Source: a phage. Taken from it: a stretch of 64,000 nt of DNA. Shown here in pieces: positions 931-26,805 of the stretch (position 1 is its first letter; the number at the start of each line of letters is the position of its first letter). A program made the position numbers and the translations under genes. The stretch lies in sequence record PX880101.1. The stretch is one strand, 5' to 3'. Below the pieces are notes generated by a model, which saw only the letters and a program-made list of their open reading frames with translations, made no database searches and was not told the DNA's origin.

Positions 931-3354
931 ATGAGCATGTGGTCGTTCGATTTTGAGTCATCCGGTTTGCTGGAAGACCCAGATCTTTATTATCACTGCG
1001 GTCTGTTTAAAGAGCTGAATAAGAACCGTTTTATGCTGTTCCTTCCTCTAAATGACCGCACACACTACTCCGAGGAGGATATAGAAAAGGCTAAGAACTT
1101 CATTCTGGCAAAGAAAACTCTTTATAAAGATTTTGAAGTTCGCATAGCAGATTTTTCGGAGTTGGAAGGTTGGCTTACAGGCAATTCCGACTGGTCACCA
1201 ACAGCTTTGAACTGCCATAACTGCTACAGTTATGACTTTATGCTGATGGAGAGATTGTCCGGTATTCATTTTGATATGTTCCGTGATCCTAAATGCATGG
1301 GGACTATCAACGACCACCAGGTTAACCTGTTTGATACGTTGGCGATGAGCCGAATTTTGTGGCCTGATCGCCCTCTACCAAAAGGTTGTCCGGACGCTGT
1401 ATTCAACCCGGTTACTAAGAAAATGCAGCCTGTTGGTCCTCACGGCCTTATGGCATGGGGCTACGCCCTTGGTAACCAGAAAGTTCAAATTGATGACTGG
1501 CGCGATCTTCCGTTGTGGAAGTATGTGGATCGTGTATTCGAGGACGTTATCATCCAGGAGCTGCTCTGGAAAGAGCTGGTAGCGGAATCAAAAGGTGTAT
1601 TCTACGGCAAATCTGACATGCAGAACTTTATGTACGATCCTGCCAAAGAGAAGCCGAAAGGGTTCAAGAAGATCACCTGGAAGAACGCATTACGCCGGGG
1701 TATGCTGCAGCACTTCCTGATGGAGCTGCAGGCCCGTCAGGGTGTATATTTCGACATAGATGGAGCTATTGCTTTACGTGACCGTTGTGATGCGTGGATG
1801 AAAGAGATCGCTGATCGTGTTGAACCTCAACTTCCTTTAAAAGAGTTGTCAATGTCTCAGCGGCCCAAGTTCCCTGAAAAGCCGTTTAACCAAGATGGGA
1901 CAATCTCCAATAATGGTTGGAAATGGTTAAAAGATAAGCTTGGCTATCCTGTGGACATGAGCGCTTTAGAGTTCAAAGCCCCACCTAAGCGAGCATTTAC
2001 CTCCACAGGGGATGTCAGTAAGATGGGGATAAAATGGTGTGAAGAGATGGGCTGTAAAGACCCTGATAAGATGGCTGATTTCTTGAGGGGCTATATTAAG
2101 GGCACCTCCACACCACAACCTTTACCTAAAGAGCTAATGGATCAGGCAATAAGTGATCTACAGCAGAAGCGAATGCCTGACTGCAAGATACCTATGAAAA
2201 TCAGCAATCAGGACGACATTAAGCGATACCTGATCAGTGCTGGTTGGCTTCCGACAATGTGGAGAACTAAGGATGTAACTAAAGACAGCAAGAAGAAAGC
2301 TCTACCTGATGCAGATGTTGATGCACGAGTATATGCATATATGGACGAGCTTTTAGAGTCAGAGTATTGTGACCTGATTATCAACTTCTGGAACAAAACT
2401 GATGCTAAGTTCCAGACAACCGTGCACAAGTTCCGAAGCTTTCCTAACTCCGAAAGGATTAAAAAGGAAGTATTCGGGAAAATACGTAGAAAAGCCAGGG
2501 CACTTATTACTTCTCCGCAACTGAAAGATACGTTTGGACACCTATGTCCGAATCTTGAAAAATTGAACGGAGAGATGGCTAAAGATATCGTCTTGTGGTT
2601 ATCCTTGCGAAACCGCAGATCGGTCCTTGATCCAATCAAGGAGGATAAGGTTGATACTGGTCTTCTTAATCACCCACGTTTGAAGATTGACCATAAGCTT
2701 CCTGCTAAAAGTTCTGGATTAACAAACACTTCCCGACAGAAACACAGTATTTGTGCGAACATGCCTAAACCATCTCCTAAAGTGGTTATGGGTAAAGAGA
2801 TGCGTAGTCTGTGGGGTGTTCCTCCAGGATACTTTGAGATTGGTATTGACGGGTCCAACTTAGAGCAGCTTATCGGGGCTTGGGGTGCCTTTGAGTTCGA
2901 CAACGGCTTGTATTATGATGTTGTAAGTAACGGGGACGCACACCAAAACAATGCTGAGGCATATACAAAAGTAGCAGGTAGAGAGGTGTCTCGTAACGAC
3001 GGTAAACCTATCACGTATGGGGTTATGTATGGGGCACAAAAAGATAAAGTTGCAGATATGCTGGACATCTCTCCAGAGTTGGGACAAAGGGTAATCGATG
3101 CACTCTGGGATGCCAACCCAGGTCTTAAGGGGCGCAAAGAGGATCTGGAGAAATTCTGGGAAGCAACAGGTAAGAAGTTTATCTACTCTTTTGATGGTCA
3201 TGCTATCTGGACCCGATCTAAACACTCTTTACTTAATGCATACCAACAAAATGGCGGTGCATCGTTGTGTGACTTAGTTGGAATACTCATGCACCACCAG
3301 ATGGTGAAGCGTGGGTGGTACGATGAAGGTGTTCGTCGTATTATTTATTACCAT
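931..3354 (+). CDS. DNA polymerase family A, exon 1 (3'-5' exonuclease plus polymerase motifs A and B)
   Basis: FDFESSG (Exo I), IDGSNLEQL (motif A), KPITYGVMYGA (motif B), NAYQQNGGASLCDL (helix before motif C); the unspliced frame ends IIYYH-K-stop at 3355-3360, before motif C is complete. Confidence 0.85.
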
Positions 3355-3630
3355 AAATAACATTGTGGCTTCATAGAGTAATCTATGTCGAATAACCTCT
3401 TTAACTGCGGGAAGCCTAAACCTTATGGCAAGGTAATCCGCAACGAAGCGCTCAAAAGAGCGAACGCTCAGAGGCCATTCCGAAAGGAAGTAGACCAGCA
3501 AGTGCGGTCGAAATGGGAGGATTCCTGTGGTTGCTTATCATAGGAATATGAGATGGTCCGATCCTACGTGAAAACGTATGGCTATGCACGTAAAGGTGCG
3601 GGGTAGCTTAACGACCTACCTGAACTATTG
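3355..3630 (+). other. Candidate group I self-splicing intron without ORF, inside the DNA polymerase gene
   Basis: Follows exon base U (3354) and ends in G (3630); GTGG at 3365-3368 can pair with exon end CCAU; GNRA-capped hairpins at 3372-3387 and 3478-3489; R-like UCAGAGGCCAU (3468-3478) and S-like AGAUGGUCC (3551-3559). Confidence 0.55.
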
Positions 3631-5191: not shown

Positions 5192-5446
5192 ATGAAAATC
5201 ATGTTGAAACCAGAATGCGTTGCAAACGACCGAGCTTTTAAAGATTGCACACTTGGCGCTACTTATGAAGCAGAGTTTTGTGAGAACCCTTTGGTAAAAG
5301 CCCTTCTGGAAGAAGGGGCCCCTTTATCACAAGAAGAGATTGATGAGCTGGAAAACTCAGCACAGTGCCTTACCTTTAAAGATGATGAAGGAGACTCTGT
5401 CTGGTGCACTGTTAATGAAGTAGTTTTTGTAAAACCTGAACATTAA
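5192..5446 (+). CDS. hypothetical protein, paralogue of 5510-5782
   Basis: AAGGAGA SD; shares the segment RAFKDCT / SAFRDCT with the next gene. Confidence 0.6.
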   Translation: MKIMLKPECVANDRAFKDCTLGATYEAEFCENPLVKALLEEGAPLSQEEIDELENSAQCLTFKDDEGDSVWCTVNEVVFVKPEH

Positions 5447-12065: not shown

Positions 12066-12255
12066 GCTTAAATCTGCATGGAACATCGCTGTGGGGGACG
12101 AGATCCGTATCCCAGGTGGAAAGACCATTATGAAGATATCTCGTATTGAGTACGAAGGTGACCGTGTATTCCACATCTTCGCAGAAGATGGTCGAGAAAT
12201 TTATATACAGGCAGGTTCTCACATTTATATCCGTAAGAAAGGGGACGACAAATGA
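12058..12255 (+). CDS. hypothetical protein
   Basis: ATG after AAGGAGGG. Confidence 0.5.
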   Translation: MFKLKSAWNIAVGDEIRIPGGKTIMKISRIEYEGDRVFHIFAEDGREIYIQAGSHIYIRKKGDDK

Positions 12256-12581
12256 CAGAGATCATCATTTCAACTGCAGGGTATGTGTTCCTGACAATCA
12301 TTGCACTGACTATTTTGGTGACAGTGTATGGGTTTGTTATCCTTCCTATCCTTGAGACATTTAGTTTGTGTCGGTGTTGGAGAAAAGCTTACGGTCCACA
12401 ACCATGGAAGGACTGGCCCCACCTGGTGCGCTTAGCGTTCTCTTATGCTTACGATCACTCCAGTAGTGCATGCATAACCGGATACCACGCCCACAACTGG
12501 AGCTGGGAAGGATTGAGGAAATGGAATGTTACAAAGACCATACCTCTACGCATGTACAAACCTAAAAACAAAGACAGCTGA
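12252..12581 (+). CDS. hypothetical membrane protein
   Basis: Hydrophobic N-terminal segment; ATGA coupling. Confidence 0.5.
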   Translation: MTEIIISTAGYVFLTIIALTILVTVYGFVILPILETFSLCRCWRKAYGPQPWKDWPHLVRLAFSYAYDHSSSACITGYHAHNWSWEGLRKWNVTKTIPLRMYKPKNKDS

Positions 12582-13598
12582 TACTTGAAAATTCCTGGCA
12601 TATCAAGTGTAAGGGGGATTTCTAAAATGGATTTCCTCCTTTTGATATTTCACCGGGCTGGATATTTTAAAATTCTTAGAAAATCAGAAAATGGATCGAA
12701 AACTAAAATGGATTTTTCAGAGTAGGCGCGACAAGCTGAATAACTCATCCTATCGTTTGCACCATATTCCAGGCCACCATTATAGATTTCCCACACATGC
12801 TAACCTCCCTCTACTAGAACTTCCTCCACTTGCCCTTAACCTTCTATGGTAACAATCTAACCACTATCTTGAAGTTGCGGTGCAGCTTTCCAAGTACTCG
12901 ATCTACTTTTCATTTCATGGCTTGGATTTTCTGAAAATTTTTCTCGATAAATTTCTCAGTACTCGATCTGTTTTTCGTTTTCTGAATCGGATTTTCTGGA
13001 AATCGTTCCGGATCTCGACCTGAAATTTTTGGGGACGAAATCGATTTTTCGTTTTCAGAAATGGATTTTTAAAATTTCTATATGGGAATATTTTATGGGA
13101 TACTGTTTTATAGGAAATTGTTACGGAGGGTAATTAGCATGCTAATTAAATTTATTAAATGCGAGGAGTTCTCATTTAGAATTTTGAATGATAATCATTC
13201 TCGTTTGCAGAATAACGGGCAGGCCCGGTGATTGTCTCCCGGCCCCTGTTGCCCCGGCTTGTTATTATAGTATCACACAGGACAAAGAAAGCAAGGATTT
13301 TTTGCATAAATTTTTAAATGATAATGATAACCGTTCTCATTTTATGCAGCGCCCATCCCCGGTGGTTGTCTCCCCCGTCACCGGTGCCTGCCGTCCTTTC
13401 GATAGGTATATTTTGCCACCTGGCGGGGCCGCTGTCAACACTTTTCAAAAAAAAATTTCTAACCTGATGCGCTGACCGCTGCAACCTGGCGGGGCCAGCC
13501 TGGCAGGGCCTAACTGACCAGGTAGGAGATAATGAAGGCTTGCAAACCTGGTGGGCCTATGCTATAGGATAGGTAACAATTGAAGAGGAGGTACAAAA
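12582..13598. repeat. Repeat-rich non-coding spacer (AAATGGATTT-type motifs, about 45-bp degenerate direct repeats, two about 60-bp tandem units)
   Basis: No convincing ORF; direct repeats read at 12620-12720, 12895-13075, 13185-13250 and 13313-13375. Confidence 0.55.
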
Positions 13599-13775
13599 AT
13601 GGAAGGTAATATGATCCCCCTGGAAAATGTAGCTATTAATGACACTGAGGCTATCGCCCTGGTTGAAAAGGCTATGGCGGGAGCGTTGGAACATAAAGAA
13701 GAGTACGAAAAAATGATGGTTAACCTGGCAGGGGCGGCGGCTGGAGAATTCTACCCAAAAAATAATTTTAACTAA
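13599..13775 (+). CDS. hypothetical protein (58 aa)
   Basis: ATG after GAAGAGGAGGT; not in the supplied ORF track. Confidence 0.4.
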   Translation: MEGNMIPLENVAINDTEAIALVEKAMAGALEHKEEYEKMMVNLAGAAAGEFYPKNNFN

Positions 13776-13778
13776 TGG

Positions 13779-13807
13779 TTGACAGCTCGGACAGTTCTTG
13801 TTATTCT
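13779..13807 (+). promoter_or_regulatory. sigma70-like promoter TTGACA-N17-TATTCT
   Basis: Hexamers read directly. Confidence 0.45.
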
Positions 13808-20597: not shown

Positions 20598-20652
20598 ACC
20601 TGGCGGGGCCGAAAAGGCCCCCAATTATGAAAATAAAGAGAGGCAAATCATC

Positions 20653-22402: not shown

Positions 22403-22594
22403 ATGACAGCGGAAGAAGTTAAAAAAGTACTGGCGGTACTGCGTTATCATAATCATTGCAAGGTGAAGAATGATCCTGATTATCTTGATTCATCCCTTGA
22501 AGAGGATACACTACAAGCCATAAGCAACATGCAAGAATTGCTTAAGCGTATGACAGAGAAAAACCGACCGGACTACATAGGGGGTAAAATATGA
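22403..22594 (+). CDS. hypothetical protein
   Basis: ORF in array. Confidence 0.45.
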   Translation: MTAEEVKKVLAVLRYHNHCKVKNDPDYLDSSLEEDTLQAISNMQELLKRMTEKNRPDYIGGKI

Positions 22595-22902
22595 TCGCTA
22601 TTACGCCAACCGTTTTAGATTGGTATCGGCAACGCATAGCGCCTCCGCTGGCTATCTTCAAAGATGCGGAAGCAAAACAACGCCGGATCTCAATACATGA
22701 GATCATCAACCTTAACGCTGGAGGCACACCATACCGCCCAGGACCTGGCCGTGAGATGGACAATACATTGGCGATCCTGAAGATACGCCGTAAACGGTCC
22801 TCCCTTACGCTGGATTCATTACACACAATGCAGTCTCCGTTCCAGGTGACTGGGAAACGGATCGCCAGGTCCTGGACAAAGGCCAATGACCGGACCGTAT
22901 AA
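22591..22902 (+). CDS. hypothetical protein
   Basis: ATGA coupling. Confidence 0.45.
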   Translation: MIAITPTVLDWYRQRIAPPLAIFKDAEAKQRRISIHEIINLNAGGTPYRPGPGREMDNTLAILKIRRKRSSLTLDSLHTMQSPFQVTGKRIARSWTKANDRTV

Positions 22903-23121
22903 ATAAAAAGTGTTTTGGTACTGATTTTGGGGTTGACTTGTTCGGCCCCTTTTGCTATTCTTATTAAACGGGCGGCACTTGGGAACAGGGGGAGACAATC
23001 ACCAGGCCTGCCTGTCATATAAGAACTATAAAAACCGTTGACATCTGCCAGGGGGGTGGGGTAACATTTATCTTGAAGGGGCAAAGGTGCCCACACAACA
23101 ACCAGAAGAGAGGAAAACACT

Positions 23122-25330: not shown

Positions 25331-26805
25331 GAAATAATAACAATCGTTATTGTGTCGAAAGTGTATAAGGTGTCATAGTATGTCAGACAAGTTTTTCTCC
25401 TCTTTGTCAAGTGCTGCATGAAAATTTACAAACTGGTATGGTAGCATTTTTGCGGCCCTGTTTACATTCAGTTGTGTATGTATAACCCTTGTTGTGTGGG
25501 CGTTTAGACGTCTGGACGGTTGGAAGTCTACAGGTCAATATCTAATCTATTGGCTGCTAACTATATCCCACACAAATAGTAAGAAATACAATTGTTATGT
25601 GAGTAAACGGTAACTCATGTTATCAATCCCTGTATGGATCGCCAGTGGTGCGCATAATGGGTATTATGTTAAATTGCCCGTAATGATAACTATTCTCACA
25701 ATGATAGGTATTCTCATTCACTCCCACAAGATAGGTTGCAAATGTTGTGCCACTGTGTGAACGGCCTCACCTATTAATTTGCCTCACTGCCTCGATATTT
25801 GAGAATTGTTATAAGAATGAGAAGTATTCCCATTTCGTCCGCCTGGCAGCACTCCAGTCGCTACCGCTCATGACAGGGCAGAACTGGGTCCATTCAGATA
25901 TTTCTGGCTGACTCTTCAGGTCTGTGTGGGAAAAGCCAACCTCTCCGGCGGGGCAGGGGTAGGTCAATTAAAAAATTTACGTGGTGTATGAAGAGCCCTT
26001 CAGGTAAGGCATGTATTATGGGATGAAACACCCTTCAGGCAATGATATTTGTGGGTGGGATATTTGCTGGAAAGCCAGATATGACGGGACTCCTGGCGGG
26101 GCAGGGGTAGTACAGACAGGGGAAATATGGTGGATGTAGTTGGGTGGATTGATCAGGCAGGTAGAGTATGGAATATGTTACAAGTATGTTAAATATGGAG
26201 GATGAATATCTGTAGGATTTGTGTGTAAAATCAAAGACTTAAGTGGTGTTGTGGTATTTTCTATAAATAATTCAAGTTTAATAGGTAATATTTGTCTCTA
26301 TCCGCTTTGTGTGGTAAACAAATTCAGATGGTGTTGGTTTACAAGTGTATACATAATATACAAATTAAAGATACAAGAAACCCCCCTCCCCCTTCGGCTA
26401 CCATTCACCTTTTCCTCTGACTGGTACTTAAACACTTATTCAGACTCTTCAGGTTATCACCCATATATCATATGGCAGTGACTGGTGTCCTCCGGCCCCT
26501 CTTTCGTCACCCGTCCGCTTCGCCATGCTAATGCCATAGCCAACGGTTCGGTTGTTCACCCTGTTCACTCAGGTGTATCTCCATACCCCTTCAAACCGAA
26601 GAGAACAGAAAACCCGAATTACTCGGTAAAAGAAAAGAGAAGAACTTAATTTTATCAGGATAGGCAAGAATGTCAAGGCATGACTGCTCACTAAACAAGC
26701 AAACAGTCATGTGTGGAAGGTAAGTGATTGTGGTGGTAGGAAATTTAGTTGAAAGATGTGTTATAGGTGCGCTTCCAGCACTTTAGCCGGGCAGCTAATT
26801 GTGTG

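Follow-up and report, generated by a model that had tools for sequence, protein, structure and literature searches.

Origins that depend on transcription are known from several phages and plasmids. The primary origin of phage T7 consists of two tandem promoters followed by an AT-rich stretch, and at oriF and oriG of T4, as in plasmid ColE1, a promoter-derived RNA is used at the origin. Other compact control elements are built differently: in the IS10 RNA-OUT/RNA-IN and coliphage 186 pR/pL modules, promoters stand face to face and produce antisense transcripts, the promoter-early stem-loop (PeSL) cassettes of T4-type phages are scattered by the dozen in variable regions, and PrrF1 and PrrF2 are multi-copy tandem small RNAs (sRNAs) linked to Fur. 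Here, we describe a 1-kb spacer (positions 12582-13598) in a 64,000-nt stretch of DNA, called the window below, from an rV5-like E. coli myovirus of the genus Vequintavirus (record PX880101.1). The spacer is neither protein-coding nor junk.

The spacer contains several elements in a fixed order: a cluster of AAATGGwTTT boxes, an array of long direct repeats (iterons), Fur-like palindromes lying over a putative forward promoter (P_F), a 27-nt core (RRCRSGCA-N5-GGTGWTTGTCTC) and, on the opposite strand, a sigma70 promoter (P_R). This order, together with the orientation of the parts, is kept in PVP-SE1, Kashira, BIS47, POP15 and the contigs L009, L016 and L120, and likewise in Seunavirus, Mydovirus, Certrevirus and Serratia/Erwinia-type phages. 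Most of the parts are kept in Phapecoctavirus, and a compact form is present in the Pseudomonas Nankokuvirus Ab03. The proteins encoded next to the module are not common between the window or Ab03 and the other genera. Comparison of these genomes shows one conserved, multi-part cis-acting module, which stayed while the flanking genes were turned over. We tentatively consider, with a probability of about 0.35, that it serves as a transcription-activated replication origin and early-control region, gated by iron via Fur in enteric phages.

In terms of architecture, the spacer resembles the T7 primary origin, T4 oriF/oriG and ColE1 RNA II in that promoters are aimed into an adjacent AT-rich stretch, and the first 30 nt of the predicted transcript are G-rich, which favours RNA-DNA hybrids as in origins of this type. 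With T7 it further shares two tandem promoters (those of core copies B and A in the window) and a T7-like replisome, encoded approximately 10 kb upstream. It differs from these systems in using host sigma70 promoters rather than those of a phage polymerase, in its three long two-box iterons, in the Fur-type boxes between promoter and iterons, and in a third promoter-core unit that has no iterons. As in the iteron origins of lambda, P1 and plasmids, at least three repeats of one orientation lie beside AT-rich DNA, and the repeat sequence varies by lineage while the architecture is kept. In contrast to lambda and plasmid iterons, the period is 52-75 nt instead of about 20 nt, and no conserved initiator gene is adjacent. 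The modules of IS10 and 186 are similar in their convergent promoters with overlapping 5' ends, one of them strong and constitutive, and in a short RNA, prone to hairpins, that complements the opposing transcript at its 5' end, but here the core is conserved across phage families and non-enteric copies have no opposing promoter. PeSL cassettes likewise combine a repeated sigma70 early promoter with a GC-rich stem-loop in early regions whose flanking genes differ between relatives; unlike them, the present unit has only three copies, at fixed syntenic positions and tied to iterons and Fur-type boxes. Finally, Fur-repressed promoters such as those of PrrF1/PrrF2 and RyhB show the same 19-bp dyad, placed here between the -35 and -10 of the putative P_F, multiple adjacent boxes and tandem duplication of the whole unit. 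In this case, however, the carrier is a virulent phage, and the transcript with the best support heads for the boxes instead of leaving them; the phage unit showed no similarity to RyhB or PrrF.

Results

Conservation was measured per column in an alignment of eight relatives and used as a footprint. It amounts to 0.90-0.99 over the core and promoter region (13132-13430), versus about 0.78 in the flanking real gene (12252-12581). The AAATGG cluster reaches 0.95 and the iterons 0.83-0.95 (12932-13080), and the stretches 12732-12880 and 13507-13556 evolve freely. To judge from this footprint, the spacer is under strong selection. Within Vequintavirus it is more conserved (0.89-0.99) than the adjacent gene, and it is found from E. 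coli to Pseudomonas phages with the genes around it turning over, a pattern that marks a core cis-function. The module is ancient and probably controls phage replication and/or early gene expression. Its GC content is 34.5-38% at 12600-13199 (34.5% at 12800-13199), versus approximately 43% in the flanks.

A first-pass annotation of the letters alone had described four classes of repeats in the spacer, and all of them are present close to where it placed them, with similarities far above chance. The boxes that it listed at 12620-12720 and 13060 comprise three exact copies of AAATGGATTT, the last at 13059 (3 versus 0.33 expected; none of 100 shuffles reached 3), and one degenerate AAATGGATCG identified by reading. 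The three degenerate direct repeats of about 45 bp lie at 12884-13069 (three of 47 nt at 74% identity; two of 62 nt at 76%). The core string CCGGTGRTTGTCTCCC occurs at 13225 (+), 13359 (+) and 22990 (-), 3 times versus 0.03 expected, the last being the inverted copy that had been proposed near 22975-23020, and a profile built from relatives finds exactly three units in the 64-kb window (E = 4e-18, 1e-15 and 2e-6). The two units of about 60 bp described as tandem are both present, but they start 134-136 nt apart and are therefore not adjacent; the repeat itself is real, but the homologous unit is longer, approximately 75-110 nt including the promoter. The strand on which the unit had been taken needs to be reversed, as it is better read on the opposite strand as a sigma70 promoter followed by the core. 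Our analysis further revealed that each unit carries Fur-box-like palindromes on its 5' side, that the ACCTGGCGGGGCC motif family is enriched (8 versus 0.48 expected) and that the spacer as a whole forms one module. A search of related genomes, which had been suggested as a check, showed that parts of the spacer recur across several phage genera.

Of the three core copies, B and A stand in tandem with their promoters directed leftward to the iterons, and copy C, located 9.7 kb to the right, has the inverted orientation and a promoter directed rightward. Copy C consists of promoter and core without iterons. Two Certrevirus-like contigs likewise contain two inverted loci, approximately 10.5 kb apart, with outward promoters. 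In a sensitive search, only about 13168-13255 is conserved across genera (80-88% identity), with homologues in unannotated gaps of Phapecoctavirus, Seunavirus, Mydovirus and Certrevirus and of Serratia, Erwinia and Cronobacter phages. The cross-genus alignment reads TTGAAT-GATAATCATTCTCAT-TTGCAGAAT-GACrGGCAGG-N4-GGTGwTTGTCTC. Pattern scans of viral contigs located the core also in Pseudomonas Nankokuvirus (Ab03, a KPP10-sized contig) and in unclassified contigs of 27, 42, 94 and 183 kb. When 185,579 bacterial genomes were scanned for the core, the matches were limited to chance ones within coding sequence, to one repeated Pontibacter transposase and to a single mislabelled phage contig; therefore, the element is phage-specific and not host-derived, and host mimicry was rejected for want of a bacterial copy. 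Contig L065 (JAEZZU010000352.1, 'MAG: Proteobacteria bacterium'), 4 kb long and binned as a bacterial MAG, is a Phapecoctavirus-like phage fragment with the full Fur-box, core and promoter arrangement. The 12-mer of the core had appeared invariant, partly because the 12-mer itself was the search pattern, and this description was abandoned since Mydovirus (GGTGTTTTGTACTCC) and contig L035 (GGTGTCTTATCCTCC) differ. A T7-type primase GTC site seen by eye in the core was also rejected, as it is not kept in Mydovirus. Separately, Seunavirus, Phapecoctavirus and Mydovirus (L004 2143-2243, L003, L020, L022, L033-L042 and L120) conserve another block of non-coding sequence (CTACCGGCGATCCACCTTCC...CCCTGGTA...TAGCCCCGCCTTTACGCCGTGGGGTGGCG) at 100-200 nt past the core, a position at which the window has copy B.

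Every true core copy is accompanied by an opposite-strand sigma70 promoter, TTGACa-16/17-(TGn)TAttcT, predicted to fire back through the core. The distance from -10 to core is 37-52 nt in most copies; in three Phapecoctavirus-type copies and L019, a different site scores best. The opposite-strand promoter outscores at least 96% of shuffles in 12 of the 14 lineages represented (mean score 10.5 versus 7.5), with lower scores (6-9) on the forward strand of these segments. A putative promoter aimed through the core is thus well supported. In Pseudomonas and unclassified contigs, conservation spans the promoter and approximately 60 nt, then ends and is followed by U-rich sequence; the tail downstream of the window's own core copies is not U-rich. 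In the window (Table 1), the spacer of P_R(B) is the reverse complement of the CCACCTGGCGGGGCC motif, and the -35 element of P_R(C) lies inside a terminator-like hairpin at 22929-22949 (GGGGTTGACTTGTTCGGCCCC, then TTTT). At 22929-22961, the end of one transcription unit overlaps the start of the next, a design that was also observed in L026 and L030.

Table 1. Coordinates of the spacer elements and of the third promoter-core unit in the window.
Feature	Position	Strand	Details
AAATGGwTTT box cluster	12620-12720	+	exact 12625, 12706; degenerate AAATGGATCG 12689; conservation 0.82-0.95
Linker, box cluster to iterons	12732-12880		footprint 0.65-0.74, below flanking coding gene
Three iterons, 52-72 nt	12891-13079	+	heads 12891, 12956, 13008; box 1 (A)GTACTCGATCTnnTTTTC, box 2 nnGGATTTTC
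Perfect 18-bp palindrome	13132-13149		TAATTAGCATGCTAATTA; between iterons and Fur-like boxes; conservation 0.93
Fur-box-like palindromes	13160-13204		distal 13160-13178 degenerate; proximal TGATAATCATTCTCG 13189-13203, 12/14 specified 7-1-7 positions
Putative forward promoter P_F	13184-13213	+	TTGAAT-18-CAGAAT; points through core A to early genes
Core copy A	13214-13240	-	+ strand AACGGGCA-GGCCC-GGTGATTGTCTCCC; - strand GGGAGACAATCACC-N5-TGCCCGTT; conservation 0.94-0.96
Predicted promoter P_R(A)	13267-13294	-	TTGCTT-16-(TGa)TACTAT; leftward through core A to iterons; conservation 0.96-0.99
Fur-box-like site of copy B	13319-13339		GATAATGATAACCGTTCTC; 16/19 to classical Fur box
Core copy B	13348-13374	-	AGCGCCCA-TCCCC-GGTGGTTGTCTCCC; most diverged copy, E = 1.6e-6
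Predicted promoter P_R(B)	13410-13438	-	TTGACA-17-CAAAAT + TG extension; 10/12; promoter tool call; 0/500 shuffles reach score
ACCTGGCR motifs	13418-13558	+	13418, 13484, 13498, 13546; just ahead of gene at 13599
Predicted promoter P_R(C)	22933-22961	+	TTGACT-17-TATTCT + TG extension; rightward; p = 0.006; promoter tool call
Core copy C	22990-23016	+	GGGAGACAATCACC-AGGCC-TGCCTGTC; inverted vs A and B; E = 1.4e-15

In the window, the iterons follow the motif GTwCTCGA..TTTTC. Automated extraction yielded 23 units from nine lineages, including the Pseudomonas phage Ab03, with the consensus GT.CTCGA..G.TTTTTC. These units have one orientation throughout, lie 200-430 nt from the core (approximately 150-430 nt with the arrays read side by side) and are followed by a second box, ATCGTATTTT or ATGGATTTTC; an exact iteron 8-mer is expected about 0.03 times per kb. 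Side-by-side reading showed three units of about 52-75 nt in PVP-SE1, Kashira, BIS47, L009, L016 and L120. The units detected number two in BIS47 and L031 and one in POP15, whose array is denser and less regular. The units of Ab03 are 32 nt long, and its gap contains three direct repeats AAGGTACTCGACAGATTTTCAC, in which GTACTCGA...TTTTC is common to the three repeats of the window. Direct repeats of other sequence occupy the iteron position in L019, L013 and L030. A scan of viral contigs for the iteron head returned mostly single chance matches, and only clustered matches are informative. The AAATGGwTTT box also occurs inside the iterons (12922, 12988 and 13061), and its cluster lies approximately 520 nt from the core in PVP-SE1, L009, L016 and L120.

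The published Fur box is the 19-bp dyad GATAATGATAATCATTATC (PMC3788343). We tested for this dyad or its 7-1-7 form TGATAATnATTATCA, counting sites within three mismatches for enrichment. The window contains 20 such sites versus 6.1 expected, a number reached in none of 100 shuffles, with clusters at 13189-13339 in the spacer and at 25684-25832 in a second non-coding region. Enteric phages carry one to four palindromes AATGAGAATnATTCTCATT beside the core on the side away from P_R, usually 29 nt apart. At the homologous position, contig L120 has a perfect TGATAATCATTATCA (7-1-7), so the palindrome variants scatter around the Fur consensus. We consider that these palindromes are putative binding sites to which Fur may bind. 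The proximal box of the window fills the -35/-10 spacer of the putative P_F, which is conserved as TTGAAT-N18-nnGAAT in all enteric lineages; in the non-enteric copies (Pseudomonas, L013, L024 and L030), neither a Fur box nor a forward promoter was detectable. Tandem overlapping AATGAGAATCATTCTCATTTTGAGAATCATTCTCA palindromes were also seen in two unrelated viral contigs without the core (L034 13592-13630; L041, minus strand, approximately 5210-5236), which shows that this palindrome serves as a regulatory site more generally, in keeping with Fur. In the searchable literature, we found no report of Fur boxes in virulent phage genomes and none that ties virulent phage development to host iron status.

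Two further motifs are placed on either side of these elements. The perfect palindrome at 13132-13149, whose counterpart in the divergent relative L031 is TAATTAGCCTGCTAACTA, could be the operator for a protein. The ACCTGGCR motif has further copies at 13723 and 20598, and Ab03 has ACCTGGCA/ACCTGGCG at the equivalent place on the far side of the core. The contexts of the ACCTGGCGGGGCC family differ: at 13418 the motif is part of a promoter spacer, and at 20598-20630, immediately ahead of the start of a gene, it is the 5' arm of a hairpin (GGGGCCGAAAAGGCCCC). In Ab03 (L043 2040-2065), ACCTGGCATGCTCTTTGCT fits by eye the sigma54 -24/-12 pattern TGGCAC-N5-TTGCW. A sigma54 site of this kind (TGGCAT-N5-TTGCT in Ab03) was rejected for the window, as its ACCTGGCR copies misfit in spacing.

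Discussion

For the spacer, the first-pass annotation had proposed sites bound by regulators, a second origin of replication or genes for small RNAs, and this set of guesses is partly supported. The binding sites are borne out at the level of sequence by Fur-type palindromes enriched around the Fur consensus and by iterons conserved in nine lineages, and a promoter through the core was added; a conserved RNA structure was not found. The origin, small RNA and transcription-hub explanations are not mutually exclusive, and the origin is the one we prefer. The spacer combines three direct repeats of one orientation, adjacent AT-rich DNA and promoters, P_R(A) and P_R(B), predicted to point into the repeats. 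In such an origin, host RNA polymerase would start at the tandem reverse promoters and produce a short G-rich transcript across the core. On entering the AT-rich iteron array, to which a phage protein would bind, the transcript would open the DNA or prime synthesis, and the opened or primed site would serve the T7-like primase/helicase and the PolA-type polymerase of the phage. In enterobacterial phages, Fur on the palindromes would repress the opposing P_F when iron is plentiful. When iron is limited, P_F would fire into the early block and either collide with the transcript of the reverse promoters or be antisense to it. In this way, both the firing of the origin and early expression would depend on iron. 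The ICP1 origin was rejected as a model, as the ICP1 paper describes a pac (packaging) site and not origin anatomy.

Several observations weigh against an origin. Among the flanking proteins compared, there is no conserved initiator-like gene beside the iterons. An origin with Fur boxes would also be out of the ordinary. The GC and AT skews do not change sign at 12-14 kb; the only switch, as seen in a scan of the window, is at about 26-28 kb, where the direction of transcription also changes, and since phage skew mostly follows transcription, this test is weak. Copy C, having no iterons, would be explained only as a 'secondary origin'. With respect to the promoters, P_R(A) has a poor -35 element and its own score is not above chance, so it rests on homology with the other copies; P_F matches the consensus at only 8 of 12 positions and falls below the threshold of the promoter tool, so it is deduced from its conservation; and no terminator is predicted before the leftward transcripts would run antisense into the upstream genes. 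Moreover, the retrieved portion of the HIDEN-SEQ transposon map of Bas54, also a Vequintavirus, is silent on the spacer, which is weak evidence that it is not strictly essential. By-eye reading for DnaA boxes found no consistent ones, and candidates were inconsistent between lineages.

A more far-reaching version of the origin proposal would make the spacer an ancient origin and early-control module of rV5-like and PAK_P3-like myoviruses, in which a host-polymerase transcript over a near-invariant core activates or primes replication at the iteron array. In the enterobacterial lineages, the module would be placed under Fur, and either iron would gate replication or early expression or the replicating genomes would titrate Fur. 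In the latter variant, hundreds of replicating genomes would derepress host iron uptake and thereby feed the iron-dependent ribonucleotide reductases of the phage. We hold this version to be rather improbable. In any case, the spacer is an unannotated and deeply conserved control module, more than a local repeat, which may connect to host iron sensing. If it is an origin, it would provide a handle for engineering, with minimal genomes and phage-dependent replicons as examples. Should the Fur-type boxes be functional, virulent phage development would be linked to host iron status, which would be relevant in the iron-limited gut and at the infection sites where phages are deployed; rV5-like phages are widely used candidates for therapy and biocontrol.

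In a rival explanation, which we consider possible but doubtful, the spacer would stand at the start of the early operon as a control hub or insulator that acts purely on transcription. Here, face-to-face promoters, Fur-gated in the forward and constitutive in the reverse direction, would determine how strongly the early genes are expressed and keep transcription of the replication operon from reading through, without a role in replication, and the iterons would be operators or upstream-activating sites for a phage or host DNA-binding protein. The position of the locus exactly between two co-oriented gene blocks is consistent with this, as are several sites that look like promoters and are directed at the early genes (TTGACA-17-TATTCT at 13779-13807 and, in ECML-10, an annotated sigma70 promoter), the overlap of approximately 40-55 nt between the convergent P_F and P_R, which resembles 186 pR/pL and IS10 pIN/pOUT, and the early block of Mydovirus KPP-1, which runs from the spacer homologue to the genome end. 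In two other places, the terminal region of KPP-1 and the window's second non-coding region, Fur-like boxes likewise stand next to a promoter. However, Pseudomonas phages and L013, L024 and L030 keep P_R and the core without a detectable forward promoter or Fur box, cis-antisense pairing needs no conservation of the core across families, and an outward-facing inverted pair about 10 kb apart is not needed by a simple operon head. The same core and promoter might instead constitute small RNA genes, three per genome, each encoding an RNA of approximately 55-65 nt that would, through its conserved single-stranded GAGACAAWCACC, target an RNA or protein of the host or the phage in trans, with the iterons and Fur boxes as separate neighbours; this, too, seems to us an uncertain candidate that we would not expect to hold. 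A short GC-rich segment lies downstream of a strong and conserved promoter, conservation ends after approximately 60 nt, and the unit is intact whatever the orientation of its neighbours; in Ab03, as for copies A and B of the window, it is antisense to the genes beside it. PrrF1/PrrF2 provide a precedent for multi-copy Fur-linked tandem sRNAs. Stems formed with wide flanks, in which a conserved 3' CCUGCSYG pairs with a variable 5' partner, fold somewhat more stably than shuffled sequences (mean z = -1.14, with 22 of the 24 copies below zero). On the other hand, RNAalifold predicted no consensus structure (0 pairs), the inner hairpin has z of about 0 against shuffled flanks, and single-sequence z-scores are mixed (-2.1 to +1.2). 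In a fixed-register count, only the two closing G-C pairs hold (23/24 and 17/24), without covariation, and a 'covarying hairpin' recognised by eye was given up after this count and the shuffle test. U-rich tails occur in Ab03, L013, L024 and L030 but are absent from the window copies, and a terminator scanner calls none. Rfam contains nothing relevant for the spacer element at either curated (gathering) or permissive thresholds, a search for tRNA and tmRNA found none, and the 12-mer varies in Mydovirus and L035. The reported RNAs of PAK_P3 (sRNA1, sRNA2 and the antisense RNAs) were dismissed as counterparts because their sequences lack the core, although an RNA of about 60 nt falls below the size limits of those methods. 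Small RNA genes would also leave the constant company of the iterons unexplained. The conserved signal is mainly primary sequence and promoter.

The remaining explanations are far less probable. That the ORFs (open reading frames) across the core are genuine small proteins, and the repeat a paralogous coding sequence, is hardly credible. ORF 13188-13475 (95 aa, PHROG 14993) does match phrog_14993, a PHROG without an assigned function, at E = 5e-63, is open for approximately 88 codons in eight Vequintaviruses and is annotated in several records, but the match most likely reflects the same ORF annotated repeatedly in close relatives. In the eight Vequintaviruses, its variable sites are distributed 10/7/10 over the three codon positions and the frame of its C-terminus changes with the length of a poly-A run. 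Its ATG lies within a palindrome without a Shine-Dalgarno sequence, indels of 1, 2 and 4 nt occur inside this stretch across genera, and the records of Navn, V18 and YP-6 annotate no gene there while others call differing small ORFs. Stop codons interrupt the overlapping ORF 13082-13231 in five of seven relatives, and ORF 22542-23120 (-) has no family match and overlaps a plus-strand gene. As had been noticed, this ORF and ORF 13188-13475 both read the core as TGRPGDCLP (the second frame was checked by hand), and the earlier argument that they are not real genes is upheld. Several 'hypothetical proteins' called across the spacer in databases are thus probably not genes and should be corrected. 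Scarcely more can be said for an anti-defence decoy RNA that would mimic either a ToxI-like antitoxin, as in PhiTE, or a CRISPR repeat. The core is superficially similar to GGTGATTTGCTACC of ToxI. The relative PhiTE, a Certrevirus, does carry a non-coding pseudo-ToxI locus (PMC3475682), but this lies at a different, non-syntenic position beside tRNAs and the terminase. Local alignment of the core with the annotated pseudo-ToxI was no better than with shuffles (p = 0.18-0.39), and the 36-nt tandem repeat is absent from the spacer, so that identity with ToxI is refuted at the sequence level; as the 185,579 bacterial genomes gave no match, there is nothing for a decoy to mimic. A packaging site or genome terminus, with the repeats and A/T tracts as binding sites of the terminase small subunit, is also very unlikely. 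Phages of the SPP1 and P1 types have pac regions with such repeats, which the direct repeats with A6T6-type tracts of the other genera resemble, and the mislabelled record A112b begins within the spacer region. Against this, the terminase genes are distant, Vequintavirus genomes are reported to be circularly permuted (PMC8407724), and the coverage-defined 514-bp terminal repeat of KPP-1 is approximately 8.4 kb away from the spacer homologue, where gene arrays converge. With the KPP-1 terminus at this other non-coding region, a packaging role for the 1-kb spacer is unlikely. In the text of the HIDEN-SEQ report, only one intergenic region, about 2 kb long, is highlighted as insertion-free in Bas54, and it is again the other locus.

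The second non-coding region of the window, at approximately 24.4-27.7 kb, is probably the same as the insertion-free region of Bas54 and the position of the KPP-1 terminal repeat; the spacer is, accordingly, not the sole candidate for an essential cis-site. This region, on which plus- and minus-strand gene arrays converge, has no substantial ORF and is rich in AT (at 24.2-25.4 kb). It contains two copies each of ATGCAAACGAATGnCATGGC and GGCGGGGCAGGGGTAG, a perfect inverted repeat of 18 nt and two tandem pairs of Fur-like sites (25684/25702 and 25800/25818).

Source Phage and Genomic Setting

The spacer and its flanks are 99.6% identical to those of phages A6-1 and MaxTheCat (Bas57), and 122 phage records match. 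Upstream, a T7-like primase/helicase of the gp4 type is encoded at 21-872 and a PolA-type DNA polymerase at 931-3360, and downstream a long run of small plus-strand genes starts with the first early gene at 13599. The gene map of the window thus agrees with the earlier placement of the spacer between replication genes and a block of small early genes.

Two observations concern the records themselves. Approximately 16 GenBank entries within MG065644-MG065682, named 'Campylobacter phage' with Campylobacter jejuni as the host, are 94-97% identical to this region and are probably mislabelled or contaminated. The DNA polymerase gene of the window carries a group I intron (Rfam RF00028, 64.7 bits) at 3345-3580, at the 3' end of its ORF; in the rV5 paper, introns are located in the terminase gene and not in the polymerase gene.

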